Of a stretch of DNA of 30,539 nucleotides, positions 4,841 to 30,467 are shown piece by piece. A program made the position numbers and the translations under genes. The stretch covers positions 1 through 30,539 of the IMG/VR virus record IMGVR_UViG_3300043184_000049, one strand, 5' to 3'. The stretch comes from a virus (lineage: Duplodnaviria; Caudoviricetes). Below the pieces are notes generated by a model. That model was given only the letters and a program-made list of their open reading frames with translations, ran no database searches and was not told the DNA's origin. Each line of letters opens with the position of its first letter. The first letter of the stretch is position 1.

Positions 4841-6796
4841 TCACTGCTGCGGCAGCGCGTCAATCACGCTGTTGCGGAACGTCTCGATTTCGTTGCGCAG
4901 TTCGGGGTTGGCCTGCGCCACCGCGCCCAGCCGCGCAAGCTGCGCGGCTACGCTGTTCACGTTGTCGGCGGGCAGCCGCGCGGTGCTGGTCAGCCAGCGC
5001 ACGAACGGGCGGCTTTCCAGCAGCCGCGCCGAGACGTTGCCGAACAACGACGTGGCCAGCCCGCCCGCTAGGCCGGTCACCGCATCGCCCAGCGAACTGC
5101 CCGCCACGCCGCCGCCGCCCATCATCGCCAGCGTGCCCAGCATGGCACTGCTGCCGCGCGGCTCGCGCGAGGCCGCGTCGCGCATCGACGCCATCACGCG
5201 CGCGAAGCTGTCCAACGCCTCGCGCGTGCCGTCGAACCGGGTGCCGCTGAACAGCGTGCGCCGCGCGCCTTCCGTCATGCTCTCCCAGTTGGAAAGCCAC
5301 ACGGCAGGGCTGAAAACCTCGCGCTGTGCGCCAGCGCCCGTCTGCAACGGCGCGAAGCCCATCTGCCGCAGCGTGCTGCCGGCGATCTGGTCCCATTGCC
5401 CCGGTTCGGCGAAGCTGCGCAGATAGGCAAGCTGCTTCGCGTCCTGCCGCGCGCCCGACATCGCCAGCGACATGACCCGGCCGGGCAGCGCATCGGGGTT
5501 CGCGAAATCCATCAGCGCTGCACCGGGGCCGCCGGCCGCGCGGAACGAGGAGACGAACGCGTCATGTCGGCGCAGCGCTTCCTGCGCAGCCGGGCCGGCC
5601 GATGTTGCCGCCTCGCTGATCGTCTCCGAAAGCTCACCATACAGGCGTTGCAGCGCCGGCACACCAACAGGGTTCGTGCCGCCGGGCACTGCCCACCCGG
5701 CTTCCTTGCCAACATCCGTGCGCAGTGCCCGCACCACGTCGAATGGCACCGCGCCGCCGCTCTGCGCCGCGTCGTTCAGCACGCCGTCCAGCCGCTGAAG
5801 CGCCGCCTGGTAGCGCGGCGCCAGCGACGTGGGTGCGCGCGCAAGCTCGCCCTGAAGCTGCGTTTGCAACTGCGCCAGCCGCGCCACCGGCACGGCCGTG
5901 CCGGCGCCGATGGCGCCGTTCAGCGCCACGTCGAGAGCCTCGCGGCGCGTCTCGAAATTGCGGATGCCCGTCTCCGCCGCCGTCTTCAGGCCGCGGCCCA
6001 GACCTTCGCGCGACAACAGCGCTTGCGTGCGGCCGGATGCATTCGCCACACCCTGCGCCATCGCGCGATTGGCGCCATCGCTCTGCGCCACTGCCGTCTC
6101 GATGGCGCGGTCAACCACGGGTGCCGATGGCGGGAAGGCGCGCAACGCGCCCTCGGCCCGCTGCACCGCCGGGTTGGCGGTGGCGGCACCGGCCGGCAAG
6201 TCAATGCCGAACTGGTTCGCTGCCTGCTGCGGGTTCACGTCCTGCATGCGCCCGCCGAACAGGTAGCGTCGCGCCGGGCCGATACCGCGACGGATTTGCT
6301 GCGCGGCCAAGTTGCCCAGGCCCGGCGCCACCGCATTCAAGCCGACGCTCATGGATAGGTCGCGCACCGTCGCCGCCACGTCGCGCGTGTCGCGTGCGCC
6401 GCTCAGGGCTTGATAGGTCTGTTCGCCCGCCGTGGCCCCCAGGCCGATGCCGGCGGCGATGCCGACGGGGCCGGATGGGGCAGCCGCCGCCGCCCCGATC
6501 GCGCCGCCCGCCGCGCCCGCGATCTCCCGGCCTACGCTGGCAACGTCGCCCACATCCAGGCCCGGCGGGTTATACAGCTTGCGCTGCCCGGTGCGCGGAT
6601 CGGTGTAGATGAAGTTGCCGTCGCCGGTCGGCGCGGCATCAGGAAAAAACCGCCGCACGGTCGCCAGACGGCTGTCGTCGTTCGGTGCCGCGCCGACCGC
6701 GCTGCGCACGTTGTAGGGCGCGCCCGTCTTGCGGTCGATGTTGCCGCGCAGGATGTCGAGCTGCTGGCGCAGCACGCTGTCAGTGATGTTGGTCAT
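4841..6796 (-). CDS. Large DNA-ejection (internal virion) protein, 651 aa
   Basis: Ala/Gly-rich helical protein with two Gly-rich hydrophobic segments. Last gene of the ejection-protein cluster; ATGA-coupled to the upstream gene. Confidence 0.7.
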   Translation of the reverse strand: MTNITDSVLRQQLDILRGNIDRKTGAPYNVRSAVGAAPNDDSRLATVRRFFPDAAPTGDGNFIYTDPRTGQRKLYNPPGLDVGDVASVGREIAGAAGGAIGAAAAAPSGPVGIAAGIGLGATAGEQTYQALSGARDTRDVAATVRDLSMSVGLNAVAPGLGNLAAQQIRRGIGPARRYLFGGRMQDVNPQQAANQFGIDLPAGAATANPAVQRAEGALRAFPPSAPVVDRAIETAVAQSDGANRAMAQGVANASGRTQALLSREGLGRGLKTAAETGIRNFETRREALDVALNGAIGAGTAVPVARLAQLQTQLQGELARAPTSLAPRYQAALQRLDGVLNDAAQSGGAVPFDVVRALRTDVGKEAGWAVPGGTNPVGVPALQRLYGELSETISEAATSAGPAAQEALRRHDAFVSSFRAAGGPGAALMDFANPDALPGRVMSLAMSGARQDAKQLAYLRSFAEPGQWDQIAGSTLRQMGFAPLQTGAGAQREVFSPAVWLSNWESMTEGARRTLFSGTRFDGTREALDSFARVMASMRDAASREPRGSSAMLGTLAMMGGGGVAGSSLGDAVTGLAGGLATSLFGNVSARLLESRPFVRWLTSTARLPADNVNSVAAQLARLGAVAQANPELRNEIETFRNSVIDALPQQ

Positions 6797-8514
6797 CGGC
6801 GGTTCCGGCGCGCGATCTCGCGCGCAATCGCGGCACGCTCGGCCGGCGGCACCTTGTCAGGGTTGGCCAGCGCATAGTCGGCCGCGGCGGCAAGCTGATT
6901 GGCGGGCAGTGCAGTGAGCGCCGCCTGTGTCCAGCCGTTGCCGGGCCGGGTGCCGGCGTCGGCCGGCAGGTCGGTGCTGTCGCGCCGCGGCCGGCCCGTG
7001 GGCCGCACCTCCGGCGCCACATCCTCGGGGTTCAGGCCGGCGCGCTGCGCCATCTCGCGGAACCGGCGCGATGCCGCGACCACATCGTCCTCGTATACAC
7101 GGAACCGGCCCTCCGCCTCGGCGCGCAGGGCCGCGCGCACGTCGGGCGTCAGCGCCGCACCGCCCGTCAGGCGGCTGACATAGCCTTGCAGCGTGTCGAA
7201 CACGCCGCCGGTGCGCTGGATCGTCGCGGCCTCGCCTTCGCGCACGACACTGGTCGGGTCAAGGAGCTTGGCGAACGCGAACACCAGGTTCAGGTCGCTG
7301 GCGATCGAGTTCACGCCCTGGCTTTCGCGGATCGCCTCGATGTTCGGCCGGGCCAGGTTGAACGCCTGCACCGCGGAACTGCTGGTGTAGTCAGTGCGCA
7401 GCGCGCGCGTGCGCTCGAACCCCTTGTCGTCGCGATCGCTGGCGGCGCCATAGTCGCGGCCCAGCTCGCCGCCCGGCAGCACCTCGCGCACCCGGCCATC
7501 GGCGACGATCGTCTGCGTGTTGCGCGGCGCGTCGGACCCGGAAGAGCCGTAATCGCGGCCAAGACTTCCGTCCGGCAGAAGCTCGAACACGCGGCCGTTT
7601 GCCGTGACCGTGCGCGTCTGGCGGTTGGCCAACGTGCCTTCCTGTTGCAGCAGCCACGACAGGGCCTTCTCAGGGTCGGCGGCCAGCATGCCCTGGAACG
7701 CGGCCAGCCCTTCGGTGGACAGCGAGGCCAGCACCGGGTTGCCGCGCAGCCGGCCAGTGATCGCAGCGGGCGCCGCGGCGGCTGCCGGCGGCGCGGCCTG
7801 CAGCGCAACCGGTGGCGCGGCAGCTTGTGGCGCAGAACCTGCCCGCACGCCAACAGCGGCGGGCGCCTGTGCGGGCGCGGGCGCGGCCTGGGGGTCAGGC
7901 GCCCCCGCGGGCGGCACCGCATCAGGTGGGCCTGCCTGTGGCGCCACGCGCGGGCCACCCGCGGGGGCGAACGCGCCCTGCACGCGATTGACCATCTGCC
8001 CCGCCGTCAGGCGGGCATAGTGCGGGTTGGCCGTCACGTAGCGCCGCGCCCAGTCGGCGCCCAGCGCCTGTTCCAGCACGGCGGGCAGCGGCGCGTCGGG
8101 GGCGGCGCGCGCAACGGCAGCCGCAGCCGCCGGCCCAAGTTCGTGGGCAAGGCCGATCTCGAATTCCAGCGGGTCGCGGCCAAGCCGCGCGCGCATCGTC
8201 TCGGCGTTGCGCTCGGCCAGCCACAGCGTCGCTTCCTGCGCCTTCTGCGGGTCGTTGCGCTGCGCCAGGATTTGCTCGCGGCTCAGTCCCTGCGCCCACG
8301 CAGGCGAGGCCTGGCGCACATAGCGCAGCCAGGTGTCCTCGACGAACTGGCCGAAGCCCACGCTGCTGCTGTTCGGGTTCCGCGCGCGCCCCTCACGCCG
8401 GTCGATCGCGCCCAGATAGTTCGGGCTGACGGCGTAGCTGCCCGGCTGCGCGGCAGGCGACGCCCCCGGCGGCGAGACACCCGCAGGCGCCCCTACCGCG
8501 GGGGCGGCACCGCT
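6793..8514 (-). CDS. -1-frame part of an ejection protein: lytic transglycosylase domain, Pro/Ala linker, and KLLDPTSVVREGE domain
   Basis: The frame is open well upstream of the track's GTG 8361 and reads ...PNYLGAIDRREGRARNPNSSSVGFGQFVEDTW, giving the catalytic Glu (codon 8394-8392) and GxxQF motif; AHELG follows. There is no ATG/GTG/TTG in this frame between the stop at 8667-8665 and 8361. Confidence 0.8.
   Translation of the reverse strand, partial: SGAAPAVGAPAGVSPPGASPAAQPGSYAVSPNYLGAIDRREGRARNPNSSSVGFGQFVEDTWLRYVRQASPAWAQGLSREQILAQRNDPQKAQEATLWLAERNAETMRARLGRDPLEFEIGLAHELGPAAAAAVARAAPDAPLPAVLEQALGADWARRYVTANPHYARLTAGQMVNRVQGAFAPAGGPRVAPQAGPPDAVPPAGAPDPQAAPAPAQAPAAVGVRAGSAPQAAAPPVALQAAPPAAAAAPAAITGRLRGNPVLASLSTEGLAAFQGMLAADPEKALSWLLQQEGTLANRQTRTVTANGRVFELLPDGSLGRDYGSSGSDAPRNTQTIVADGRVREVLPGGELGRDYGAASDRDDKGFERTRALRTDYTSSSAVQAFNLARPNIEAIRESQGVNSIASDLNLVFAFAKLLDPTSVVREGEAATIQRTGGVFDTLQGYVSRLTGGAALTPDVRAALRAEAEGRFRVYEDDVVAASRRFREMAQRAGLNPEDVAPEVRPTGRPRRDSTDLPADAGTRPGNGWTQAALTALPANQLAAAADYALANPDKVPPAERAAIAREIARRNRR
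7435..7623 (-). repeat. Two copies of an internal protein repeat with 33-aa spacing
   Basis: RQTRTVTANGRVFELLPDGSLGRDYGSSGSD and RNTQTIVADGRVREVLPGGELGRDYGAASD; starts are 99 nt apart (7623, 7524). Confidence 0.85.
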
Positions 8515-8520
8515 AAAGGG
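8461..8520 (-). other. Putative programmed -1 ribosomal frameshift signal: slippery heptamer C_CCT_TTA (8520-8514) plus downstream hairpin (8506-8461)
   Basis: X_XXY_YYZ heptamer in the correct phase of ORF 8945-8493; a -1 slip enters the transglycosylase frame. A 7-nt spacer precedes a stem of about 19 bp. Confidence 0.75.
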
Positions 8521-8945
8521 GCGCCGCCGTTGCGTCGGCGCGCCTCCTCTGCCAGGGCCGCCTGGCCGGCGGCAAAGGCCGCGCGCTGCCGCTCGACGGC
8601 AAGCCGCTGTTGTGCCAATTGCTGCCGCGCCGCCGCCTGCGCCAGGCCGCCTTGCAGCGTCTGGTCATAGGCCTGCTGGCCGGCCTGCACGCCCTGGAAC
8701 ACGCCCTGCCAGGGCGATCGCGGTTCCAAACTCGGCCCGTTCGCAGCCAGGATGCCCAGGCCCATGTTCAGCAGGCGGTTGCTCTGCGCGCGATCCTGAA
8801 GCGCATTGAAGTCCACCTGCGGCGGCTGCTGTGTCTGCTGCTGCGCCAGCAATCCGGGCGGCACCGGCGGTCCCTGCTGGTTCTCCGGCTTGTTGTGCCA
8901 GCCGGAAGCCCATTTCCATGCGTCGTCGAGGGTGAAACCGAACAT
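8493..8945 (-). CDS. Gln-rich ejection-cluster protein (150 aa); N-terminal part of the predicted 717-aa frameshift fusion
   Basis: ATG 6 nt after the upstream stop. Contains PPGLLAQQQ and LLNMGLGILAANGPS segments typical of internal-virion protein N-termini. Confidence 0.75.
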   Translation of the reverse strand: MFGFTLDDAWKWASGWHNKPENQQGPPVPPGLLAQQQTQQPPQVDFNALQDRAQSNRLLNMGLGILAANGPSLEPRSPWQGVFQGVQAGQQAYDQTLQGGLAQAAARQQLAQQRLAVERQRAAFAAGQAALAEEARRRNGGAPLAVPPPR

Positions 8946-8951
8946 GCTGCC

Positions 8952-9914
8952 CTACCGCCCCAGAAGGCCACCAAGTGCGCCCAGCCCCGCGATGCCCCAG
9001 CCCAGGGGGCCGCTGGCGCCAAGCGCAGACGCAAGGCCGGCGCCAGCCGCACCGCCGCCGATCAAGCCGGAAATGCCGCCGCCGCTGTTGTAGACCGGGC
9101 GCGTCTGCGTGCCCGTGCTGACCGTGCTGTAAGGCGACTGGCCGAGTGCCTGCTGGCGGATGAAGGCCTGCTGCAAATCATAGTCGCGCGCCTCGATGAA
9201 CTTCGCTTCATCCTGCGCCAGCCGCGTCTGGTCCATCGCCTGCTGGCTCTCGCCCACCGCGGCGAGCTGCTGCGCGTCGCTGCGCGTGATGTCGCTGGCC
9301 CGTGCTGCCGCGTTGACCGCTTCCGACCCCGCCTGCGCGCGCAGGCCGGCGCCCTGAAGATCGCGGTTCGCATCCGCGTTGAAGCCCTGCATCGCCTGTT
9401 GCCAGCCCTGGCTGAACAGGTTCGCGGTGGCATCGCCCGCGACCGTGATCGCCTCACGGTTCGTCAGCGCATCGGCCACACCCTGCCGACTGCCGCCGAA
9501 GGCGCCTGCGCGCAGGGCTGCATCCTCGGTGCCCGCGACCGCGGCGCGGCGCTGTTCGTCGATCGAGCGCAGCGTGGGGTTCAGCGTCGCTTGCAGGAAC
9601 GGGTTGATGTAGCCCGCCTGGTCGGCGTTCAGCCACGACTGCGGCGTGTAGCCGGCAGCGCCGGTGATGGCGCTGATGCCTGAATTGATCGCGCCCTGGT
9701 TCGCGCCGGCATTCTGGCGGATCAGCCCGAACGCCGCCTGCTGGTCGGGGCTGAACGGCGCGATCGTCTCGCCCTGATACTGTTGCAGCGGCCGGTTCGT
9801 GATCTCGGAAATCTGTTCGTAGTTGCCCTTGCTGGCTGCATCGACCCAGGCCGGCAGGGTGTTCCGGGTTTCCTGCACGACCGTCTGCGACTTGCCGCCA
9901 CCCTTACCGCCCAC
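8952..9914 (-). CDS. DNA-ejection/pilot protein (320 aa)
   Basis: GTG with AAGGAG RBS. MGGKGGGKSQTVVQ N-terminus, YINPF and AGAFGGSRQGV motifs, and a Gly-rich hydrophobic C-terminus. Confidence 0.75.
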   Translation of the reverse strand: MGGKGGGKSQTVVQETRNTLPAWVDAASKGNYEQISEITNRPLQQYQGETIAPFSPDQQAAFGLIRQNAGANQGAINSGISAITGAAGYTPQSWLNADQAGYINPFLQATLNPTLRSIDEQRRAAVAGTEDAALRAGAFGGSRQGVADALTNREAITVAGDATANLFSQGWQQAMQGFNADANRDLQGAGLRAQAGSEAVNAAARASDITRSDAQQLAAVGESQQAMDQTRLAQDEAKFIEARDYDLQQAFIRQQALGQSPYSTVSTGTQTRPVYNSGGGISGLIGGGAAGAGLASALGASGPLGWGIAGLGALGGLLGR

Positions 9915-10516: not shown

Positions 10517-12006
10517 CGGCGCGCGCCCTGCCCGGCATGCAACACCAGCGAGCCGAGCTTCCAGCCCACGTCATCGGCACCGCGCACGGTGAAGCTGGCG
10601 CGCCGGCCGGTGAACCGGCAATCCGCCGCGCCATCGGGCCGCGTGAAGCTGTAGGGGCCGCGCGCCGTGGGCACGCTGTTCGGCTTGTCGCGCACGGCGA
10701 CCTCGATGTTGAAGCCCTCGGGCCGCACCACGGTGTCGCTTTCGATCATCGTCACCACCACCTCACGATCGCCGGTGCCGATCTTCAGCGGCGCGGTGGT
10801 GGCGAAGATGCCGGCGGCGCGCGGCGCCCCATCGTCCAGCCAGCCGAATTCGTGCTGATACAGCCGCCCCGCAGGTGATGCGGCGATGGGCCGATCGTCG
10901 CCAGGCACTTCCGTCATGGCGGTGCGGTCAAGCAGCCCCGTTGCCCACCATCCTTCCCGGAAGCTGTAGGTCGCGTAGCGCCGCGCGCCTGCGCGGTCGG
11001 TGTAGAACCACCACACCTCGCCGCGCGCGAAATTCACGCCGGACGAAACTTCGCCGTCGTTCAGCCGGCGCGTGTCGTCGGGCACCAGTGCCTCGATCGT
11101 GCACGGCAGGCGCCGCACCGCACCGTCGAACACCCAGAAACCGTTGCTGGCCAGCCAATATGCGGCACCGCCGGCCACCGCCACGCCACCCGGCCCCACG
11201 CACCCGCAGTTGCCGGCCAGCCGCTGCACGCCGTAGGTGAAGGGGCGGCCGACGAAGCTCAGCAGGTGCGCGTCGGTGTCAGTCAGGATCAGCGTGCCGC
11301 CCCGGATTTTGGCATGCGCGCGATAGACGCCGTTGGTGTTCATGCGCAGGTCGCCGCTGTTGTTCAGCGGGTCAGTGCTGGGCGCCCAGACGGCCAGGTC
11401 TTCGCGCTTGCACCACTGGATTTTGCGCGGGTCGCCGCCGGCCGCGAAAGCCACTAGGTGCCGCTCGTCAGTCACGGCGACGCCGCGCGCGGTCGGCGCG
11501 CCAAGCAACGCCGCGGCCTGCGCCGCAAACAAATCCCAGCGGTAGATCGCGCCGTTGTCGTTCGGGCAGGCGATCAGGTCCTGCCCCCAGTTGTCGAGAG
11601 ACCATACCCGCGCGGCCAACGTGATGCCGCTGCCGATGCGCTTGCGGCCATACTTGCCGCGCCCGTATGGGCCGGCGCCGTAGCCCAGGCCCGGCGCGCT
11701 GTAGGCGCGGCCGGCGGTCAAGCCGGCGGGCGTGATGTCGGCAACACTGCTGCCCGACCAGGCATACAGTTTGGTGTTCGTGCCGATGGCGACGCGGCGC
11801 TGAAGATCGTTCGCGGTCCATGCGTGCAGCGCACGCGGCACGCCATCAAGCACCTGTTCAAACGCCCGCCCCCATCCGCCGATCGGCTGCAACGCGCCGT
11901 CCACCCAGCGCACCTGGTTGGCTGAACGCCAGCGCCCGGAGGCCTGTTCGTCCGTGCTGTTCGCCACCACGCCAGGCGGCAGGGTGATGGGCAGAGGCTG
12001 CTTCAC
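10513..12006 (-). CDS. Tail hub/nozzle (DNA stabilisation protein, P22 gp10-like), 497 aa
   Basis: Start reassigned to GTG 12006 (GTGA overlap). ITLPPGV..GRW...VRW, GYGAGPYGRGKYG, WSLDNWGQDL and FARGEVWWFY; beta-propeller-like pattern. Confidence 0.8.
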   Translation of the reverse strand: MKQPLPITLPPGVVANSTDEQASGRWRSANQVRWVDGALQPIGGWGRAFEQVLDGVPRALHAWTANDLQRRVAIGTNTKLYAWSGSSVADITPAGLTAGRAYSAPGLGYGAGPYGRGKYGRKRIGSGITLAARVWSLDNWGQDLIACPNDNGAIYRWDLFAAQAAALLGAPTARGVAVTDERHLVAFAAGGDPRKIQWCKREDLAVWAPSTDPLNNSGDLRMNTNGVYRAHAKIRGGTLILTDTDAHLLSFVGRPFTYGVQRLAGNCGCVGPGGVAVAGGAAYWLASNGFWVFDGAVRRLPCTIEALVPDDTRRLNDGEVSSGVNFARGEVWWFYTDRAGARRYATYSFREGWWATGLLDRTAMTEVPGDDRPIAASPAGRLYQHEFGWLDDGAPRAAGIFATTAPLKIGTGDREVVVTMIESDTVVRPEGFNIEVAVRDKPNSVPTARGPYSFTRPDGAADCRFTGRRASFTVRGADDVGWKLGSLVLHAGQGARR

Positions 12007-12959
12007 GCGGCCCGCCGTCGGCGCTTCGGCGCGCTCACCAGCGCGTCGCCGCGGAAGATCACCTCGTCGCCCTGCACCTCCGCCATCTCGGGCGGCAGCA
12101 GCCGGCCGCGGCGGAACGTGCACACGCCGAACCCTTCCGCCCAGGGCGAAGGCGTGCCGCGGCGGTAGCGGAACTGCGGGCCGTGCGCCGGGCCAAGCAT
12201 GCCCAATTCCAGCGCGTAGGCGCGGCGCACGAAGTTGGTGTAGGTTTCGATCTTGCCGCGGTGCGTGTGCGCCGTGCAGATCGAGGCGCCGCCCTTCAGC
12301 AGGTTGTTGTAGCTGGCATGGATGCCCTGATGCCACTTGTGCATCACGATCAGTTCCTGGTCGTTGATGTCATACGACCAGGCCTCTGCCCAGGCGGGCA
12401 GGTGATCCTTCAGGCGGAACCCGTGAACCTGTTCAAACTGGTCGGCATTGTTCGCAAGCAAGGTGTCGATGCGCTCATCGTGGTTGCCGATGGTGCGCAG
12501 CAGCTCGGCATCCGGCGCCGCCGCCTCGATCTCGGCCAGCGCCTGCTTCACCGCCGCCAGTTCGTCGCGCACGGCGGGCGCGTGCATCCAGCCGATGCGC
12601 CCGTGGCGGCTGATCCGCGCGCCATCGAAAATGTCGCCGTTCAGGATCACCGCGGCGGGCTTCAGCGCCTGACAGGCGTGCACGAAACCGCGCAGCGCCA
12701 GCGAATGCTTCACGCCCGGCCACGCGTGCAGGTCGGCGCCAAGCAGCACCACCCCTTCGTCGATGCGCAGCGGCAGTTTCTCGGGATAGACGACATCGAT
12801 CTGGTCAACGACCAGTTCGGGCGCATCCTGCGCGCGCAGCATCGACAGGCGGGCCTGCACGGTGCGGATGTGGATACCAAGCTTCTGCGCCGTGCGCAGC
12901 GCATTGCGCCCTGCCGTAATGTAGGCGTTCAGGAACTCCTCGCGCGAGACGCGGGTCAT
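12003..12959 (-). CDS. Calcineurin-like metallophosphoesterase with N-terminal HTH-like segment
   Basis: Metal-binding motifs ADLH, LNGDIFD, GNHD, MH and AHTH. N-terminal ALRTAQKLGIHIRTVQARL. Confidence 0.85.
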   Translation of the reverse strand: MTRVSREEFLNAYITAGRNALRTAQKLGIHIRTVQARLSMLRAQDAPELVVDQIDVVYPEKLPLRIDEGVVLLGADLHAWPGVKHSLALRGFVHACQALKPAAVILNGDIFDGARISRHGRIGWMHAPAVRDELAAVKQALAEIEAAAPDAELLRTIGNHDERIDTLLANNADQFEQVHGFRLKDHLPAWAEAWSYDINDQELIVMHKWHQGIHASYNNLLKGGASICTAHTHRGKIETYTNFVRRAYALELGMLGPAHGPQFRYRRGTPSPWAEGFGVCTFRRGRLLPPEMAEVQGDEVIFRGDALVSAPKRRRRAA

Positions 12960-20151: not shown

Positions 20152-20166
20152 CGTCTATCCGGCAAC
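20152..20166 (-). promoter_or_regulatory. Conserved motif GTTGCCGGATAGACG, ending 32 nt upstream of ATG 20120
   Basis: 14/15 match to the other copies; contains the TAG stop of the dNMP kinase gene. Confidence 0.75.
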
Positions 20167-20730
20167 TGCCGGCCCGTGTTCGGCGATGGCTTCATCGATG
20201 CAGCGATGCAGGTAGGCGACCGGCCCGCAGTTTTCGATATCAACGGTGCGCACGTCCGGCGGGCTGATGTAGCCGCGGCTGTCGTTGGCATAGGTGCAGC
20301 CCTCCCGATGCAGCCGGATCAGCAGCGCGTTACCCCGCCCGACGCTCGCCAGCACGGCCTCCGCCTCCGGCCGGAACCCGCTGTCCGGCACCGCGGCGAA
20401 CGAGGCAAACGGCGCATGCTCGCGCTCCCACCGGCGCAGCCACATGTGACCGAACACGTCCGCACCGTGCAGCGGCTTCATCAGGTGTTCCGACACGGCG
20501 ATGTAGGCCCGCCGGGGCGAGACGCCGCCGAACTGCCCCAGCGCCACGTCCTTCATGTCCTCGTAGTGGTCGAACGCGGCGGCCAGGCCATACAGCCGGT
20601 GCGTCATCTCCTTCAGCTCATGCGCGAACCCGCACGCCCGCCAGCCCTCGCGCTTGGCGAGATGCGCCGCAGCCGTGTCCTTGCCGCTGCGCGGTGGCCC
20701 ATTCAGGAAGACAACGAATTTCGGGGTCAC
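20155..20730 (-). CDS. Deoxynucleoside monophosphate kinase (191 aa)
   Basis: Start reassigned to GTG 20730. P-loop FLNGPPRSGKDT, then FAHELK, SPR and VPDSGFRPE. Confidence 0.8.
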   Translation of the reverse strand: MTPKFVVFLNGPPRSGKDTAAAHLAKREGWRACGFAHELKEMTHRLYGLAAAFDHYEDMKDVALGQFGGVSPRRAYIAVSEHLMKPLHGADVFGHMWLRRWEREHAPFASFAAVPDSGFRPEAEAVLASVGRGNALLIRLHREGCTYANDSRGYISPPDVRTVDIENCGPVAYLHRCIDEAIAEHGPAVAG

Positions 20731-20936
20731 TGCTTCGCATTCCTCTTGCGTGGGTGCCGCTTGGGCGCCGCGGGTTCCGGATGACTGGGACCGGGGTTCG
20801 CGCCATGGAAGCCGGGCGGGAACTCCCGCGGCGGGGGCTTCCGCCCGGCCGGGGCGGGGTTCGAGATCACGCTGCCGAAACCGCAACCGAGCGGCGCCGC
20901 CTCGCCCACATCGTTGTCGCCGAACCGACCCGCCAT
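20727..20936 (-). CDS. Small Pro-rich hypothetical protein (69 aa)
   Basis: ATG overlaps the terL stop (TGATG) and its TGA overlaps the kinase GTG (GTGA), so it fills the gap exactly. Confidence 0.55.
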   Translation of the reverse strand: MAGRFGDNDVGEAAPLGCGFGSVISNPAPAGRKPPPREFPPGFHGANPGPSHPEPAAPKRHPRKRNAKQ

Positions 20937-22363
20937 CACACCAACCCCTTGATCCCGCGTTTCAGCGGCCGGCCGGCCGCCCACGGCCTCCCGAAGGCCG
21001 CGACGGCCGCCGTGCCACCGAAGGTCAGCGCCAGCGCATCCCCGCCATCGGGCGAGGGCACGCCGCGCTTCTTCATGTCCTGCTTGCTCTCGACCTGAAG
21101 CCGCCCGCTGCTGCTGAACGCGTAACGCGGCGCCGCCAGTTCGGCCGCCAGCGTCTCGTCCTTCGGCAGGCGCACCGCCAGCGTCGCCAGCCAATCCTTC
21201 GCGCTGAACCACAGTTGCGCGCGCAGGTTCAGATACTTGTTCCCGATCGACGGGCTTTCCGAGACGTTGATGCCGATCGCCGGCAGGCCAAGCTCGCGCA
21301 GTCGATCGACCACGCCCGCGCCGATGCCGATGCTGTCCACAAGGATTTCGGCAGGCCGCTGCGGATCGGGCCGCGCGTTCCACCGCTCGGCAACCAGGCC
21401 GGTCACCTGCATGGTATCCAGGCCCGACCAACGCTCCGGCGGCGCCGGCACGATGTTGCCGTGGCGCTCGACCAGCACCGTCTTGTCGCTGCCGAACCGG
21501 GCCACATCGAGGCCCCAGACGCGCGGCGCGCTTTCCAGCACGGCGATGTCCCGGCCCATCGCCGCCGCGATCGTCTCATAGGCGATGACGGTATCGTCCT
21601 CCGCCAGCGGGAACTCGCCCAGCACGCGCACGCGATAGGCGTTACTGTTCTCGCCGTAGGTCAGGCGCTGTTCCGCCACGTAGGCAGCCGAGACACGCGG
21701 CGTGTCCAGGCACGAGATGTGCTCGCAATGCCAGTAGCCCGGCGGCGGGGGGTCTTGCTGCGCCCGCAGCGCGGTCTGCGATCGCGCGAAATAGCCCGTG
21801 TTGCGCGTCGGGTTGCCGATCAGAAGGGCCACGGCATCGTCGCCCGACATCGAGCCGCTGGCCGCCTCATAGACCTGTTCCGGCACGCCGGAGGCCTCAT
21901 CGACGATCAGCATCACGTGATCGGAATGCACGCCTGCCAGCGCTTCCGGCGTGTCGGCACGGCTGGTGCGTGCCGAGATGAACGCCTCGTCCGGTGCGGC
22001 CGACAGGCGAACGCTGTCCTGGTTGTATTCCAGCAGCCCTGAAAGCTCGGGCGGCAGCTTGTTCACCCAGGCCTTCATCTCCGCCAACAGGCCGTCGAAC
22101 AGGGTCGAGGAGCTGGGGGCGGTGCAGACGATCTTCACCGGGAACCGGGTGATCAGATACCAGATCGCCGCCCACGAACAGAGCGTGGATTTGCCGGTGC
22201 CGTGGCCGCTGCGGATCGAGATGCGCCGCACGCCCTTGGCGATCTTCGCCAGCACGCGCGCCTGCCAGGGGTCGGGCTTGGCGCCCAGGATGTCCTCGAC
22301 GAACGCGACGGGATCACCGCGGTAACGCTCGATGAAGCTGCGAAAAATTGCGGCGGCGTCCAC
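20936..22363 (-). CDS. terL: Terminase large subunit
   Basis: Walker A SGHGTGKST, Walker B MLIVDEA, IGNP, nuclease WGLDVARFGSD and SPDGGDA. Confidence 0.95.
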   Translation of the reverse strand: MDAAAIFRSFIERYRGDPVAFVEDILGAKPDPWQARVLAKIAKGVRRISIRSGHGTGKSTLCSWAAIWYLITRFPVKIVCTAPSSSTLFDGLLAEMKAWVNKLPPELSGLLEYNQDSVRLSAAPDEAFISARTSRADTPEALAGVHSDHVMLIVDEASGVPEQVYEAASGSMSGDDAVALLIGNPTRNTGYFARSQTALRAQQDPPPPGYWHCEHISCLDTPRVSAAYVAEQRLTYGENSNAYRVRVLGEFPLAEDDTVIAYETIAAAMGRDIAVLESAPRVWGLDVARFGSDKTVLVERHGNIVPAPPERWSGLDTMQVTGLVAERWNARPDPQRPAEILVDSIGIGAGVVDRLRELGLPAIGINVSESPSIGNKYLNLRAQLWFSAKDWLATLAVRLPKDETLAAELAAPRYAFSSSGRLQVESKQDMKKRGVPSPDGGDALALTFGGTAAVAAFGRPWAAGRPLKRGIKGLV

Positions 22364-24102: not shown

Positions 24103-26676
24103 TCAGGCAGCCGCGTCGCGCAGCTTCCCGTGCTTCACATACGCGACCGGGTTGTTGCCGGTGTGCGCGAACCGCTTGCGCAGCGGCCGGCCATCCGGAT
24201 TGCGCACCATCAACCCGGCAACACCCTTCAGCCGCGCCGTGAAGCGATGCTCGCTCATCTCGTCGTCGGCCCACGCTTCGTCCTGGGTGCTGCACCACGC
24301 CTGGTAGTCGCGGCGAAGGTCGCTCACCGGCGTCTCGACACCGATGGCCGCAGGTCCCGCCTGCAAGCGTTCTTGTGACCAGCCGACGAACCGGTCCATG
24401 GCCCCGAAAATCTCGTTCGTCGTCATGCGCATCCGGTGCGGCCATTCCACGACAGTGCAGCCGTCGAGGTAGCTCAGCCGCGCCTGTTCGATCAGCCGAT
24501 GCAGGATCGCCGGCCCTTCCTGCATCACCAGCCGGTCCGTCAACCGCGTGTCGCGCTTGTGCTCGGGCACCGGAACCTCAGTGCCGATGATGCGCACGCG
24601 CCGCGTGATCGCGTTATCGACCTGCTGGAAGTCGGGAAACTTCTGCCCCGCCACCAGCAGCAGCCCGCGGAACCGGAACGTTCGCGGCGGCCCGTGCATC
24701 TGCCGCGCCTCGATCTCGTCGCCGCCCGTCAGCGCCTTCAGCCGCGCCTCGTTCCACCGTCCGCCTTCCTTGGTGATCTCGTTCAGCACTGCCAGGCGCA
24801 GATCGTGCAGGCGGAACAGGCTGGCCTTGTGCTGCGCGGCGCCGCGCGTGTTCAGCACGTCCGCGTCGATCGCACCGGCATAGCTGCCCATGATCTTCAG
24901 CAGCACGTTCAGCAGGGTGCTTTTGCCCGTGGCGCCCTCACCCACCAGGCTCAGGAACACCTGCGATCGCGGGTCGCCCAGCAGGCCGTAGCCCAGACAC
25001 CGCCACAGCCACTCCACCGTCTCGGCGTCGCCGTTGCACAGGTGCAGCAGCAGCGCGTCGAACAGCGGCGTCTCGCCGGCTGCCGGAGAGATTGCCGTGC
25101 AGCGCGCATCGAACCACTGGCGCGCCGTCGCCGCGTCCACCGTCTCGCCGGTGCGCAGGTCATAGCTTCCCGTCGGCGTCTGCAAGCCCAGGGCGTTGTG
25201 GCTGAACTCTTGTGGCGGCAACAGGGCGCCGCGCAGGATCGCCAGCACCGCCGGGCCGCGGTTCGCGGTCGCCACCTGCACCATCTGCGTGTTCGACCAC
25301 TCGATGCCGTGGCGGTTCGCATAGGCCGCGATCAGGTTGCGCACGATCATCTCGGCTTCCACGCCTCGCGTCTGGGAGCACGCCAGCCAGCGCTGCCCGT
25401 TCCACCGCATCCAGCGTTCGCTGAATGGGTCGAACGCCAGCACCTCCCGGGCCGCAGCCCACACGCCGCGGGCGATCATCGCATCCGCGTAGCTCGGCGT
25501 GCCGTCCTGCACGTCGATCGGGTTCTTCAGTTCCTCGCCCGTGCGCGGGTCGATCGCCGGTTCCAGCGCCGGCAGCACCGGCCTGAACTCGCTGCGCGCC
25601 TCCTCCTCGCGCAGGCCCTGCACGCCGTGCTGCGTGGCAAAGTCGCGCAGCCACCGCCAGCCCAGGTTCGCCACATCCTGTTGCGACCAGTCGTCGCGGA
25701 ACTTCGCCCGCTCATCCTCATAGGCGCTCGGGTGCGGCCCTTCCCAGCGGCTGGCCCACAATGCGGCCAGGTGCTCGGCTTCTTCCTGCTGTTCGAGGCT
25801 GATCGCATCATCCTGCCGCAGCGCGGCGATGCAGCCCGCGGTCGCCAGCATCACCTTCATGTAGTCGTCGCGGCTGACGGAAGCCGGGTTGCGCATGTCG
25901 CGCAGCGCGGCCAGCAGCAGCCCTGCCTTCGGCGGCCGGCGCTCTTCCGCCGAGAGAGGCGGCAAGGCACTGCCGCCGCCCGCCGCCGCCGTGATCACTT
26001 CCAGCCCGTGCGTCGCGCCGATGCTGCGCAGCGCGTCTTCCACCAGCGTCACCAGCGCCTCGCGCCCGATCGGCGTGCGCAGCGCCTGTTGCAGGTTCGG
26101 CACCGGCCGGTGCGAGCCTTCGCCGAACACCGTCCAGCCGATCGGGTTGCCGCTGGCGTGCGTGCCGGCGATGACGATCTGCTGGCCCTGCCCCAGCAGT
26201 TCCAGCTTCCATTCGTCGGCGCCCTTGCGCAGCAGCCACGTCGCCTTGCGCGGCACCTCGTCGTCGATCTTCAGCAGGGTGGCACAGCGGCCCATCACCG
26301 TCTGCCGCATGTCCAGTGCGCCGCAGTCGCGCGCCTGTTCCAGCGCGCGCATGAACGCCTCTGCCACGTCGGCATGCTGCGGCGGGCCATCCCAGTCCAG
26401 CGCCACGAAGCCGGCAGCGCCAAGGTTCAGCCCGACGTTGCCGCCCGGCACCAGGCAGCGATCCAGCAGCACGCCGATGTCGAACCCGGCCGGCCATTCG
26501 GGGGCCGGATACCACCGGCCATCACCAGGCGACCACATCGCCGGCGCCTTGCCCATGCGATCTTCCGTCATGCCGCCGCCTGGCTGGCCAAGGGTCATCG
26601 GCGGCGAGACGGGCACCAGCACGGCCGAGCCGATCGCATCCGTGACGGGCCGCAGCGCGGCTGCCGATACAGGCAT
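24103..26676 (-). CDS. Primase-helicase: Prim-Pol (AEP) N-terminus plus D5/P4-type SF3 helicase
   Basis: GNVGL..FVALDWDG and QIVIAGTHASG (Prim-Pol); Walker A GEGATGKST, VLNE, LKALTGGDEIEAR and DNAITRR (SF3). Confidence 0.9.
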   Translation of the reverse strand: MPVSAAALRPVTDAIGSAVLVPVSPPMTLGQPGGGMTEDRMGKAPAMWSPGDGRWYPAPEWPAGFDIGVLLDRCLVPGGNVGLNLGAAGFVALDWDGPPQHADVAEAFMRALEQARDCGALDMRQTVMGRCATLLKIDDEVPRKATWLLRKGADEWKLELLGQGQQIVIAGTHASGNPIGWTVFGEGSHRPVPNLQQALRTPIGREALVTLVEDALRSIGATHGLEVITAAAGGGSALPPLSAEERRPPKAGLLLAALRDMRNPASVSRDDYMKVMLATAGCIAALRQDDAISLEQQEEAEHLAALWASRWEGPHPSAYEDERAKFRDDWSQQDVANLGWRWLRDFATQHGVQGLREEEARSEFRPVLPALEPAIDPRTGEELKNPIDVQDGTPSYADAMIARGVWAAAREVLAFDPFSERWMRWNGQRWLACSQTRGVEAEMIVRNLIAAYANRHGIEWSNTQMVQVATANRGPAVLAILRGALLPPQEFSHNALGLQTPTGSYDLRTGETVDAATARQWFDARCTAISPAAGETPLFDALLLHLCNGDAETVEWLWRCLGYGLLGDPRSQVFLSLVGEGATGKSTLLNVLLKIMGSYAGAIDADVLNTRGAAQHKASLFRLHDLRLAVLNEITKEGGRWNEARLKALTGGDEIEARQMHGPPRTFRFRGLLLVAGQKFPDFQQVDNAITRRVRIIGTEVPVPEHKRDTRLTDRLVMQEGPAILHRLIEQARLSYLDGCTVVEWPHRMRMTTNEIFGAMDRFVGWSQERLQAGPAAIGVETPVSDLRRDYQAWCSTQDEAWADDEMSEHRFTARLKGVAGLMVRNPDGRPLRKRFAHTGNNPVAYVKHGKLRDAAA

Positions 26677-26677
26677 G

Positions 26678-28768
26678 CTATTCCCCTTTCAGATAGCGGT
26701 CGGCAGCCGACGCATCGGCCGCCACCGGCAGGCCGGTGCGCCAGGCAGACGGCAGCGTCATCGTCGATCGCAGCAGCTCGGCCGCGTCCTCGGCTTGCGC
26801 GCAGCGGGCGCGGCGCACCTCGGCCAGCACCTCGTCGTGCACGGTCATCACCAGGTGCACGCCGACGGTGATCGCCAGGCGCAGCATCGCCTCGCCCATC
26901 ACGTCGCGCGCGGTCGATTGCGTGATGTTCTCGGCCAGCAGACCGCCATACATCGTGAAGCGACGGAACTGCTTGGTCTGCGCGTCCTCGCCCATATAGG
27001 TCACGGCGTCGCGCGGGCCGAACGGCGTCTCGATGCGTTCAAGGCGCGGATGCCAGTAGAACAGCTTCGATCCGGGCAGCGGCAGCGCCAGCGCCATGCA
27101 GGTGCTGGTGCGCCGGAACACCAGCGCCGGATGCGCGTGCGCCGCCCGGCTGCCATCCCACGCCACCTGGTCGCGCACGCGCACGCGGTCCCCGACGGGT
27201 GCCCGCATGCACGCCAGCGCGGCGTCGTTCAGCGCGCGCCACAGTGCCACGATGCGCGGGTTGGCGGCCCGCCAGGCGATCTTGATCTCCTCCGCGCGTT
27301 CGTCGCTGACACTGACGCGGTAGAGCTTCGCCATGCTCTGGAACGCGCGCACGCCGCCCTGGAAGCCGAGGGCCAGCTCAGGCACCTTGCCCAGGGCCTG
27401 CCGGTCGTCCTTGGTCACATCCTCGGGCGCCTTGCCGGTGATGCGCGCGGCCGTGACCTTGTAGATGTCGGGGCCGCGCCCGTCGTCGAACGCCTGGAAT
27501 GCGTCGAGCTTCGCCTGTTCGCCGGCCAGCCACGGCAGCACGCGCGCCTCGATCTGGCTGTAGTCGCCGCGCGCCAGCCAGCAGCCGGACGCCGCCTGGA
27601 AGCAGGGGCGCAGAAGCTCGCTGGCGACGACCAGGCCCGGGCCGTGCGCGGCCTCAATGTGCGCCAGCGAGGCGCCGGCCTTCAGCATCGCAACCGCGCC
27701 GGCCGGGTTTTTCACGGCCCCGCCGCGCGGCATGTTCTGCAACTGCGCACCGCGGCTCGACCAGCGCCGCGTGGCGGCGGCACCGCTATACACCAACGGT
27801 CCGCGCAGGCGGCCGTCGGCGCCCGTGCGGTTCATGATCGCGCGGTATTTGCTCGCGCTGCTTTTCCCGCCCTCGCGACGCAGCAGCAGCACCTCGCGTG
27901 CCAGCGGCGGCGTCTCGGGGTTGGCCAGCAGTTCGTCCACCGCGGCGCGTGCCACCGACAGTTCGGCGTCGCCGTGCTCGAAATCCCAGCCGGCGAGATC
28001 GAGCTGCGCGCGCAGCCACGTGGCCAGCGCCCGGTGATCGGTGACGCGGCGAAGCGCCCCGCCGGAAGCCAGTGCCATGCGTCGGTTCACTATCGCGGCG
28101 GCTTCATCGACCAGCAGGGCGGCGCGCGTCAGCATCTGCGTATCAACGCCGATGCCGCGGTCGTTGATCATTTCCGTCAGGCGCCACAGCCGGCGTTCCT
28201 GGTCGGGCAGGGCGGGCAGGGCGCGGTCAACCAGCCGCTCCACCACCACGTCGTCGCGGCAATAGGCGGCGAGGCGGGCCACGCGGTCCGCATCCTCCCA
28301 CCACACGATGCCGCCGCCGGGGTCGATGCGGCGCGGCCGGCACATCTGCAACATCAGCCGGTGCCCTTCGGCGTCCTTCTGCGCGGCGAGGCCCAGGGCC
28401 TTGCCGGCGCCGGCCAGCGTGCGCGGCAGGCCGAAGCAGGCCGCACGTGCGGCCGTGCACGTGAACCGCACCAGCCCGAACCACGCGGGATCGAGGCCGA
28501 GCGCGCGGGCGTGCGCGCAGCGGGTGAGCATCGTGCGCTCGAAACTGGCGTTGTGCGCGACCAGCGCCACGGCCGGGTTGCGCAGTGCGTCCAGCAGCAG
28601 CCGCGGCGCCGGGTCGGTCAGGCAGTGCCACACCTGCACCGCGTCGTCGTCCAGCGCCCAGGCGAACAGCATGACCTGGGTGGTCGGGTGGTTCGCGTAT
28701 TCGTAGGCGCCGACCTTGCGCAGGTCGGCCGTGCTGCGGGTTTCCAGGTCGATGTAGAGGTTCGGCAT
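26678..28768 (-). CDS. polA: Family A DNA polymerase with 3'-5' exonuclease
   Basis: ExoI YIDLETRS, ExoII AHNASFE, ExoIII YCRDD; motif A DYSQIEARV, motif B RQALGKVPELALGF, motif C VHDE. Confidence 0.95.
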   Translation of the reverse strand: MPNLYIDLETRSTADLRKVGAYEYANHPTTQVMLFAWALDDDAVQVWHCLTDPAPRLLLDALRNPAVALVAHNASFERTMLTRCAHARALGLDPAWFGLVRFTCTAARAACFGLPRTLAGAGKALGLAAQKDAEGHRLMLQMCRPRRIDPGGGIVWWEDADRVARLAAYCRDDVVVERLVDRALPALPDQERRLWRLTEMINDRGIGVDTQMLTRAALLVDEAAAIVNRRMALASGGALRRVTDHRALATWLRAQLDLAGWDFEHGDAELSVARAAVDELLANPETPPLAREVLLLRREGGKSSASKYRAIMNRTGADGRLRGPLVYSGAAATRRWSSRGAQLQNMPRGGAVKNPAGAVAMLKAGASLAHIEAAHGPGLVVASELLRPCFQAASGCWLARGDYSQIEARVLPWLAGEQAKLDAFQAFDDGRGPDIYKVTAARITGKAPEDVTKDDRQALGKVPELALGFQGGVRAFQSMAKLYRVSVSDERAEEIKIAWRAANPRIVALWRALNDAALACMRAPVGDRVRVRDQVAWDGSRAAHAHPALVFRRTSTCMALALPLPGSKLFYWHPRLERIETPFGPRDAVTYMGEDAQTKQFRRFTMYGGLLAENITQSTARDVMGEAMLRLAITVGVHLVMTVHDEVLAEVRRARCAQAEDAAELLRSTMTLPSAWRTGLPVAADASAADRYLKGE

Positions 28769-29241
28769 CAGGCGATGCCGTGTTCATCCAGCCCGCTGAC
28801 CAGCGAGCCTGTCTTGCACGGCGTGCACATGCGGATGCGGATGCGGTCGGGGCTGAAGAACGGGTTGCCGCAGCACAGGCAGTTGATCGCGGCGCGCTTG
28901 GCCTTCTTGCCCGGCTGGCGGGCGTGCAGACTGAAGTAACGCTGCTGCACGGTCTTGATGGCCGTGCGGCCCATCTCGATGCGGATGCGATCCCAGGTCC
29001 AACCCAGGTCGTCGCGGTAGATCAGTAGCAGCTTGTCGTCGTCGGCGGTGAAGCGGCGCAGCGTTTCCGCCGGGCGGCGGGGGTTGCGCGCCTTGCTGGC
29101 GGGGATGCCGTGGCGGGTGCGCACCGTCCAGACGGCGGCGCGGTTGATGCCGAGATCGACACTGATCTGCTGGTCGTTCAGCCCTTGGCGGGCCAGGGCG
29201 CAGATGCTTTCGACCCGTTGGGGCGGCAGGCGGACAGGCAT
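28768..29241 (-). CDS. Putative transcriptional regulator: HTH, Myb/SANT-like repeat and C-terminal Cys4 Zn ribbon
   Basis: GLNDQQISVDLGINRAAV (HTH), FTADDDKLL..GWTWDRI..EMGRT, and CLCC..CTPC; GGAG RBS. Confidence 0.7.
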   Translation of the reverse strand: MPVRLPPQRVESICALARQGLNDQQISVDLGINRAAVWTVRTRHGIPASKARNPRRPAETLRRFTADDDKLLLIYRDDLGWTWDRIRIEMGRTAIKTVQQRYFSLHARQPGKKAKRAAINCLCCGNPFFSPDRIRIRMCTPCKTGSLVSGLDEHGIA

Positions 29242-29277
29242 GATGATCTCCGGAGGTAGCCTCTCCGTTCACCCTGC

Positions 29278-29292
29278 TGTCTATCAGGCAAC
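29278..29292 (-). promoter_or_regulatory. Motif copy GTTGCCTGATAGACA, inside a possible sigma70 promoter spacer upstream of the regulator/replication operon
   Basis: 14/15 match. TTGACC at 29300-29295 and a weak -10 (CAGGGT) 18 nt downstream. Confidence 0.6.
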
Positions 29293-29324
29293 TTGGTCAA
29301 CAGGCGAGTGCGGGGACGCAGGGC

Positions 29325-29537
29325 CTATCCGAACACGCGCGCGCGCAACGCTGCCTTGGCGGCCGCGATCTTGTCAGCCGCATCCGCCGGCAGGGGCAGC
29401 ACGGTCACCGGCACGTCAAGCCACGGCCCGTGCGCAACCCCAGGCTGCGGCTGCCAGACCTGGGCCAACTTGTCGTCGGCCCATTGTCGCGTCGCGCATT
29501 CTCGTGTGCCGGGATCGTGCGGTCGGTGGTCGCTCAT
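29325..29537 (-). CDS. Hypothetical protein (70 aa)
   Basis: The ORF fills the gap on the coding strand; no recognisable motif. Confidence 0.4.
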   Translation of the reverse strand: MSDHRPHDPGTRECATRQWADDKLAQVWQPQPGVAHGPWLDVPVTVLPLPADAADKIAAAKAALRARVFG

Positions 29538-29579
29538 GCCGGCGACAATCGCGCCGCGTGTCGCGCGCGGGCTATCCCG

Positions 29580-29897
29580 CTATCGTCGGGGATCGTTCCG
29601 GAAGCGGGTTTCTGCGATGGCGACGCAAAACGCGAAGACGATCGGCGCGCAGCCAATAGTGATCGCCGATAGCCATATACCCAGATCAGGAACAAGCGCG
29701 ACGATTAATATTCCGGCCACCCCGCCGAGCAGCAACAGGGCCGCAGTTTTCTTATCCTCAGCCTTGACGCATTCGATGAGCATCGCGACGGACATCACCG
29801 CGCCGAACCCGGCAAGACCAAAGGCCAAGCTGTTCTTGATGAAAACGACTAGCGGGTCGCCGTAGAAACCCAACTCGCGCAGCAGGTAGTCGTGCAC
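29580..29897 (-). CDS. Membrane protein with about 3 TM helices (105 aa)
   Basis: Three hydrophobic segments; starts 9 nt after the repressor stop; visibly less GC-rich codons. Confidence 0.65.
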   Translation of the reverse strand: MHDYLLRELGFYGDPLVVFIKNSLAFGLAGFGAVMSVAMLIECVKAEDKKTAALLLLGGVAGILIVALVPDLGIWLSAITIGCAPIVFAFCVAIAETRFRNDPRR

Positions 29898-29906
29898 CCT
29901 TGCCCC

Positions 29907-30467
29907 CTACGCCCGGTGCAGCACCCACGTCACCCGGCCGGCGATCGCCAGCCTGTCGGGTCGCACCTCCTCCACGTCGTCGCCGCCCAGGGTCACGCGC
30001 AGCTTGCCGTCCAGCATCCGGCGCACGTGATACAGCTCGGGCGGCGCGTTCCCGCCGCCCTTCACCGCCAGCAGGTATATGCCGTCGCCGGCCACGCGGC
30101 GCACCGCGGTGTCGATCAGCACCGCGTCACCCTGCTTCGCCGCCGGCATCAGGCGAGAGGTGGTGACCGTCATCAGTTCCAGGTTCGCGCCCGGCACTTC
30201 CGTCATCTGCGCCAACCGCTGCATTATTTTTGACGATGTATTCGGCGGTGCCGCGCCCAGCGCCGTCATGACGCGATCATAGTCGCGCGCGAGGATGTTC
30301 CGCTCGCCTCGCTCGATGCGAGACAAATACGCGCGCCCCCAGCCAACCCGCTTGCCGAGTTCTTCCAGCGTCAGGCCGGATTTCATGCGCGCTTCTTTGA
30401 TCTGCGCGCCCAGGTCTTTCGCGTCCACCACACATACCCTTGTGTTCTGTCGCCTTGTGGAAAACAT
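29907..30467 (-). CDS. CI-like repressor: XRE HTH plus degenerate S24-like C-terminal domain (start may be GTG 30428)
   Basis: IKEARMKSGLTLEELGKRVGWGRAYLSRIERG (XRE); MP..KQGDAVLID..GDGIYLL..IAGRV (S24 pattern). Confidence 0.85.
   Translation of the reverse strand: MFSTRRQNTRVCVVDAKDLGAQIKEARMKSGLTLEELGKRVGWGRAYLSRIERGERNILARDYDRVMTALGAAPPNTSSKIMQRLAQMTEVPGANLELMTVTTSRLMPAAKQGDAVLIDTAVRRVAGDGIYLLAVKGGGNAPPELYHVRRMLDGKLRVTLGGDDVEEVRPDRLAIAGRVTWVLHRA

Follow-up and report, generated by a model that had tools for sequence, protein, structure and literature searches.

The viral record IMGVR_UViG_3300043184_000049, whose entire 30,539 nucleotides (nt) were analyzed and are called the window below, has a G+C content of 69% and carries the terminase, portal, scaffold, capsid and ejection genes of a podophage, all on the minus strand. 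The second place in the ejection cluster, behind a gp14-like and a gp7-like gene, is taken by two overlapping frames: an open reading frame (ORF) of 150 amino acids (aa) in frame 0, and a −1 frame that, to judge from its sequence, is without a usable start of its own (Table 1). The 0-frame ORF ends in GCC CCT TTA GCG ... TAG, with the TAG at 8495-8493, and the C_CCT_TTA within this end is an X_XXY_YYZ heptamer that is in phase and lies in the overlap of both frames, as simultaneous slippage demands. We consider it probable that programmed −1 frameshifting at this heptamer joins the two frames. This is what a first-pass annotation of the window had proposed, and the frames, heptamer phase, fusion length and hairpin that it described came out as claimed; its reading is still the best supported one and has gained independent support from a related protein, P0032, that ends at the same place.

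Across the 6,650 codons of the 16 other window genes there is not one in-phase XXXYYYZ (Y = A or T), and CCCTTTA itself occurs a single time on the window's minus strand. The TTA codon within it is likewise absent from those 6,650 codons. This rarity had been put forward as a sign of recoding, but it is no evidence by itself because an off-frame read after a deletion would give TTA too; it carries weight only through the leucine that P0032 has at the same place. Using 3-periodic Markov models of orders 2-4 trained on the 16 other genes, we found that the coding signal changes frame on the heptamer, with a peak at 8518-8521, 67-87% of the frame-switch weight within 8508-8531 and 11-16% within 8496-8507.

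Table 1. Features at the frame junction and in the neighbouring ejection genes, in window coordinates
Feature	Position	Strand	Remarks
0-frame ORF, 150 aa, 16.2 kDa	8493..8945	-	N-terminal module of gp20-like ejection protein; predicted short product
Slippery heptamer C_CCT_TTA	8514..8520	-	Pro-Leu in frame 0; CCC TTT in frame −1
−1 frame, open stop to stop	6793..8664	-	573 residues from 8514 plus first 144 give 717 aa, ~75 kDa
Expected no-indel reading within the junction	8490-8530		CCCCTTTA
Spacer, 7 nt	8507..8513	-	Between heptamer and hairpin; within the 5-9 nt criterion
Predicted stimulatory hairpin, 20 bp	8461..8506	-	−38.8 kcal/mol; contains 0-frame TAG
Alternative 9-bp hairpin	8503..8528	-	Predicted; heptamer in loop; competes with stimulator base
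Most conserved block against P0032	8511..8567	-	17/19 residues identical, up to and through slip site
GAGGAGG (codes Glu-Glu-Ala) 7 nt 5′ of in-frame ACG of −1 frame	8533..8549	-	Possible non-canonical start, in the two-gene alternative only
Family N-module	8601..8777	-	Residues ~57-115; contains the most hydrophobic segment
Lytic transglycosylase domain, phiKZ gp144-like	7969..8424	-	Putative catalytic Glu at 8394-8392
Conserved DPxSVVRE domain	6991..7440	-	Homologous to Lederbergvirus gp20 260-377, P22 PP3 ‘plinth’ region
Upstream ejection gene, gp7 position, 320 aa	8952..9914	-	PHROG 4287 DNA ejection protein, E 8.7e-18; weak SEN22 gp7 profile match, E 0.0024
Downstream gene, gp16 position, 651 aa	4841..6796	-	By position only; overlaps long form's stop by 4 nt

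The gaps at successive gene junctions are −4, −8, −11 and +6, then 131 to GTG 8361, and then −4, so that the contrast drawn earlier between tightly coupled neighbours (−11 to +6) and this one junction holds. GTG 8361 is the first GTG of the −1 frame; it stands 131 nt beyond the 0-frame stop, within the enzyme domain, and behind a weak Shine-Dalgarno (SD) match (−3.5), and the first ATG comes 156 codons into the frame. These positions bear on the alternative that the locus holds two separately translated genes, a small ejection protein followed by an enzyme-plus-plinth protein started at ACG 8535 behind GAGGAGG, at CTG/ATC, or at GTG 8361. The GAGGAGG is the strongest SD-like match tested (−11.7), and 28 of 63 other loci have the gp7-like gene separated from the gp20-like gene by a gap, which in most cases holds a small ORF. 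A second product begun in this way would, however, be without the N-module that relatives have, and a start at GTG 8361 would remove the conserved Glu. The three remaining occurrences of GAGGAGG are intragenic and this one codes for residues kept in P0032, ACG is a very weak start in bacteria, and the heptamer and hairpin would be left unexplained. We regard two separate genes as quite improbable. Frameshift sites of the dnaX and IS911 kind have, as an optional feature, an internal SD ∼10-14 nt upstream; such an element 10-14 nt 5′ of the heptamer is absent here, where GAGGAGG ends 22 nt before it.

The hairpin predicted to stimulate frameshifting folds as 8 bp, a bulge, 4 bp, a second bulge and 8 bp with three G-U pairs, closed by a UGCG loop. 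Its stability ranks first among 15,247 46-nt windows, taken every second base, and its site is the second locus among 60-nt windows; windows fitted to the hairpin reach shuffle z values of −3.8 and −4.5. The window's most stable 60-nt fold lies elsewhere, at 20962-21021 on the minus strand (−49.6 kcal/mol), near the 3′ end of the terminase large subunit ORF.

P0032, a protein of 156 aa on one 5,738-nt contig, is the best of 21 non-self matches to the 150-aa ORF among 1.84 billion representatives (E 3.5e-28, 53% identical). It reads Ala-Pro-Leu-Ala in the manner of frame 0, not Pro-Phe-Ser, and ends one residue later than the 150-aa ORF. Conservation is highest in the block that runs through the slip site (binomial p 4e-4 at 50%, for a block chosen after the fact). 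This protein bears on a second alternative, namely that an ordinary continuous 717-aa gene truly lost one base, from the CCCC or the TTT run, in a defective phage or decaying prophage. A private deletion would not predict P0032's Pro-Leu-Ala reading, with Leu-Ala and not Phe-Ser, or its matching end point. Moreover, only 16 of 19,869 simulated single-base deletions yield an in-phase heptamer at the break, the genome's strongest hairpin among 46-nt windows lies 7 nt downstream, and no truncation is seen in the other core genes tested. Favouring a deletion are the continuous genes of the rest of the family, the random break found in one relative (L106, below) and a repressor-like gene that suggests a temperate phage. 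We judge this alternative to be improbable.

The possibility that the base was lost through sequencing or assembly error, which the first-pass annotation had itself raised, is very remote in our estimation. An 18,185-nt contig of depth 44.3 is identical over 6500-9500, with 0 differences, 0 gaps and no indel variant listed, the runs are just 4 and 3 bases long, and P0032 is independent. In favour of an error, the comparison was made at contig level, and all three contigs that carry the 150-aa protein may stem from one data set. Transcriptional slippage, which requires longer runs than 4 and 3, was considered and rejected.

Several observations weigh against programmed frameshifting at this site. 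The locus was singled out for having a heptamer, and slippage and both products are deduced from DNA and protein sequence. C_CCU_UUA differs from the usual bacterial A_AAA_AAG; it has been proposed for giardiavirus and is disputed there (PMC8230311). The depth-44.3 contig is perhaps from the source run. For fold windows longer than the hairpin the shuffle z is only −0.9 to −1.3, and 71 of 1,500 sequences that encode the −1 frame peptide with other synonymous codons reach the same stability (p ∼ 0.05), so that much of the hairpin's stability is tied to the Pro/Ala/Gly peptide it encodes, a peptide that may itself have been shaped by the RNA. P0032 is known here as protein only, which leaves its heptamer, hairpin and −1 frame conjectural, and the protein may have been cut short by the contig end; several other short matches sit on contigs of 601-1,308 nt and look like fragments. 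Finally, the family set comprises 178 ORFs with the C-terminal domain (C-domain), 169 of them with a closed 5′ end, the window included, and in none of the 168 other closed loci does a strong hairpin occur together with an in-phase heptamer and an upstream ORF with its own start. Only the window has the full arrangement, and the signal thus belongs to a small lineage. As to the conservation among relatives to which the first-pass annotation had tied its claim, P0032 keeps the peptide and the end point, and the more distant loci lack the full arrangement. In four loci (L076, L119, L144 and L161) an overlapping ORF lies upstream and a heptamer is present, but these were rejected because their folds are weak (0 to −21.5) and an ATG lies close by.

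Viral scans with the 150-aa ORF, with P0032 or with a degenerate junction pattern returned no close DNA-level relative. A 20-nt junction pattern had one match in the viral scan, on a 2.2-Mb record (L254), which established no close relative, and L012, which is 99% identical in the upstream gene, stops before the junction. The relatives of the capsid protein are at most 50% identical, and a metagenome scan gave three loci, all distant and continuous. Among 401 genomes, the P0002/P0032 profile matched none and the C-domain five. No phage record matched the 150-aa ORF and no longer homologue of it was found, the latter being weak evidence; atlas matches, to short viral clusters at 0.88-0.91, serve as leads only.

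The sequence evidence identifies the 150-aa ORF and the −1 frame as two halves of one P22-gp20-like ejection gene. Outside the window, 23 of the 24 matches to the N-module profile lie in ORFs that also carry the C-domain, a count that overstates independence since the family loci include duplicates. The sole exception, L106 (2435-3803), is a gp20-like gene with a +1 break ∼180 codons later; because its near twin L026 is intact and the shift is +1 and so much further on, this break is random, probably an error or a mutation. The start of a family protein, P0007, aligns to the 150-aa ORF at 46% over 56 residues. At the other end, the C-domain profile matches SEN22 gp20 (E 1e-30) and E212 gp20 (E 9e-30), at residues about 260-380, and Mx8 p56 (E 1e-52), and because the split gene is likewise second in its ejection cluster we take the protein to be gp20-like. 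The hydrophobic segment of the N-module is, by analogy with P22 gp20 residues 51-66, likely an outer-membrane helix; direct similarity between the N-module and the N-termini of Lederbergvirus gp20 was not detected.

Between the N-module and the C-domain, the same gp20-like scaffold bears swappable cell-wall enzymes or none, the types seen being transglycosylase-like, PF05838, PF01832 and SleB-like (P0008-P0015, P0023, L001, L020, L022, L264). In six loci (L014, L116, L123, L132, L133, L146) the DPxSVVRE domain belongs to an ORF of 955-1,119 codons that continues ∼400-900 codons beyond it; these ORFs are possibly gp20-gp16 fusions.

The domain inserted in the window protein finds its best sequence match in phiKZ gp144 (PDB 3bkh, E 8e-4) and matches PHROG 4067 at E 1.6e-12, while no Pfam family matched it. 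A model predicted from a seven-row alignment, with a predicted local distance difference test (pLDDT) score of 83, resembles the gp144 fold (TMq 0.70, probability 1.00, E 3.2e-3); a single-sequence fold was poor and uninformative. Both the G-x-x-Q-F motif and, in the model, the transglycosylase fold are present, and the domain is likely to be enzymatically active. Its catalytic segment had been placed upstream of GTG 8361. Homology and a conserved Glu at 8394-8392 bear this out: one alignment shows no variation at this residue, which stands last in the first helix of the predicted model. A gapless alignment, however, sets Ile-Asp, and not this Glu, opposite the homologues' Glu-Ser, which makes it the likely, though not the certain, catalytic residue. 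It is followed by Gly instead of Ser, and the next loop has a pLDDT below 50. Whereas phiKZ gp144 is a stand-alone endolysin, the window domain is carried as internal cargo; Glu-Gly replaces Glu-Ser in it, and one loop is about four residues shorter. Since gene callers start this gene at GTG 8361, the enzyme's N-terminal helix is lost from their predictions.

Mechanistically, a ribosome with tRNA-Pro on CCU and tRNA-Leu on UUA would meet the hairpin, and a fraction of ribosomes would re-pair on CCC UUU. The predicted driving force of the slip is the hairpin 7 nt further on, possibly helped by the UUA codon, which is unused in the 16 other genes and may be read slowly in a GC-rich host. Ribosomes that do not slip would terminate after a further 21 nt, the product being the N-terminal anchor of 16 kDa; slippage would give a 717-aa protein consisting of the anchor, a Pro/Ala linker, the lytic transglycosylase, a further linker and the C-terminal domain. 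The shift had been seen as a switch for the transglycosylase; it does add that enzyme, but also the linker and the gp20 C-terminal domain, and thus the whole periplasmic part. As the whole family needs the C-terminal domain, it is the long form that is probably essential. By analogy with P22, it would be a subunit of the periplasmic tube that cuts peptidoglycan during ejection.

What the short form might do is suggested by related phages. In seven loci of one clade (L007:4281-4769, L008, L010, L030, L253, L020:2927-3436 and L022:3112-3459), the gp20-like gene is preceded, behind the gp7-like one, by a separate gene of 115-169 aa that is paralogous to the N-module (E 1e-8 to 4e-5), which suggests, again by analogy, that a short anchor can be useful by itself. 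These paralogues end in a common IRVPSLLG motif, and the sister loci L001-L006 have no such gene. More widely, the small ORFs in the gap after the gp7-like gene are Pro/Gln/Gly-rich, as in Mx8 p55 (L258:2966-3325) and MJing1 (L264:4261-4602), and some gaps hold unrelated inserts (e.g. L083, L091, L020, L046); since 35 of the 63 loci have no gap there, a separate short gene is optional. The small ORF may possibly encode an overlooked fourth ejection protein. In the window, the short form would perform the task of the separate gene, so that the proportion of the two forms would depend on the slip rate; that this proportion in turn fixes how many muralytic subunits are ejected is a conjecture of the first-pass annotation. 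We suggest, tentatively and with more doubt than confidence, that in a small phage lineage recoding replaces the duplication seen in related freshwater phages, which have a short paralogue besides the full gene. The gp20-like gene would yield two ejectosome components in a slip-set ratio: a short anchor, packaged in the capsid and occupying part of the gp7 ring, and a long tube subunit with the enzyme. If so, gp20 rings could be mixed and the short anchor would be a fourth, overlooked ejection protein. An anchor-only protein would bear on how the trans-envelope channel is assembled and on its load of muralytic enzyme.

P22 gp20, to which these roles are compared, is packaged, ejected and forms a 12-mer periplasmic channel, known for P22 only; its residues 1-47 line the gp7 channel, residues 51-66 cross the outer membrane, and residues 256-435 form a plinth at the inner membrane that is thought to template gp16 (bioRxiv 10.64898/2026.09.03.749273). 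P22 gp20, Sf6 gp12 and Mx8 p56 share the position of second ejection gene and the C-domain with the window protein. Unlike it, each is encoded by one ORF, of 428-471 aa, that lacks a transglycosylase, and the passages at hand describe no short form.

Among phages, the lambda G/GT tail assembly chaperone and the T7 10A/10B capsid protein are made by −1 frameshifts. Such shifts have an XXXYYYZ heptamer near the 0-frame stop and give a short and a C-terminally extended form with one N-terminus (PMC10885494, PMC9965538; see also PMC8954989, PMC10386132). Lambda G/GT, T7 10A/10B and the major capsid proteins of phage A2 and Kuravirus resemble the window in these respects. In contrast, the window gene belongs to another class, its extended form, rather than its short one, holds the family's conserved domain, and its predicted stimulator is a very long GC hairpin. 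The first-pass annotation knew of no described case in an ejection protein, but a predicted one is in print: for Alteromonas phage vB_AspP-H4/4 gp39/gp40 (GenBank MF278336), a −1 shift has been predicted that fuses an endolysin with an internal virion protein (PMC5658483). This, too, is a predicted shift in a podophage ejection gene with a short and a long product and a cell-wall enzyme involved. The H4/4 gene is the last ejection gene of a T7-type phage (Autographiviridae), its heptamer is A_AAA_AAG directly before the stop, and its short product is the endolysin, so that the enzyme is in both forms, whereas the window gene is gp20-type, with the anchor as short form and the enzyme in the long form only. 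A literature search that had few subscription papers and no supplementary lists (e.g. PRFect's) within reach found no frameshift in a gp20-like gene. If programmed frameshifting is correct for the window, phage −1 frameshifting would reach a further class of ejection proteins, that of P22 gp20, and the site would represent a strong bacterial frameshift cassette that is GC-rich and has a heptamer that is not A-rich.

The window sequence was found in one public run, a freshwater metagenome that may be its source, and the closest match to the C-domain, at 51%, is in a Rhodovarius genome. No tRNA gene is present in the window, no integrase was found among the 32 window ORFs scanned, and the product of the gene at the gp16 position has no significant gp16 match. 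An extension of the capsid gene was also considered and rejected, as there is no heptamer and a 97-aa gene occupies the gap. Genes for a repressor-like helix-turn-helix protein, a DNA polymerase and a primase lie in 24103-30467, and the structural module also houses deoxynucleoside monophosphate kinase and metallophosphoesterase genes (20155-20886 and 12003-12959).

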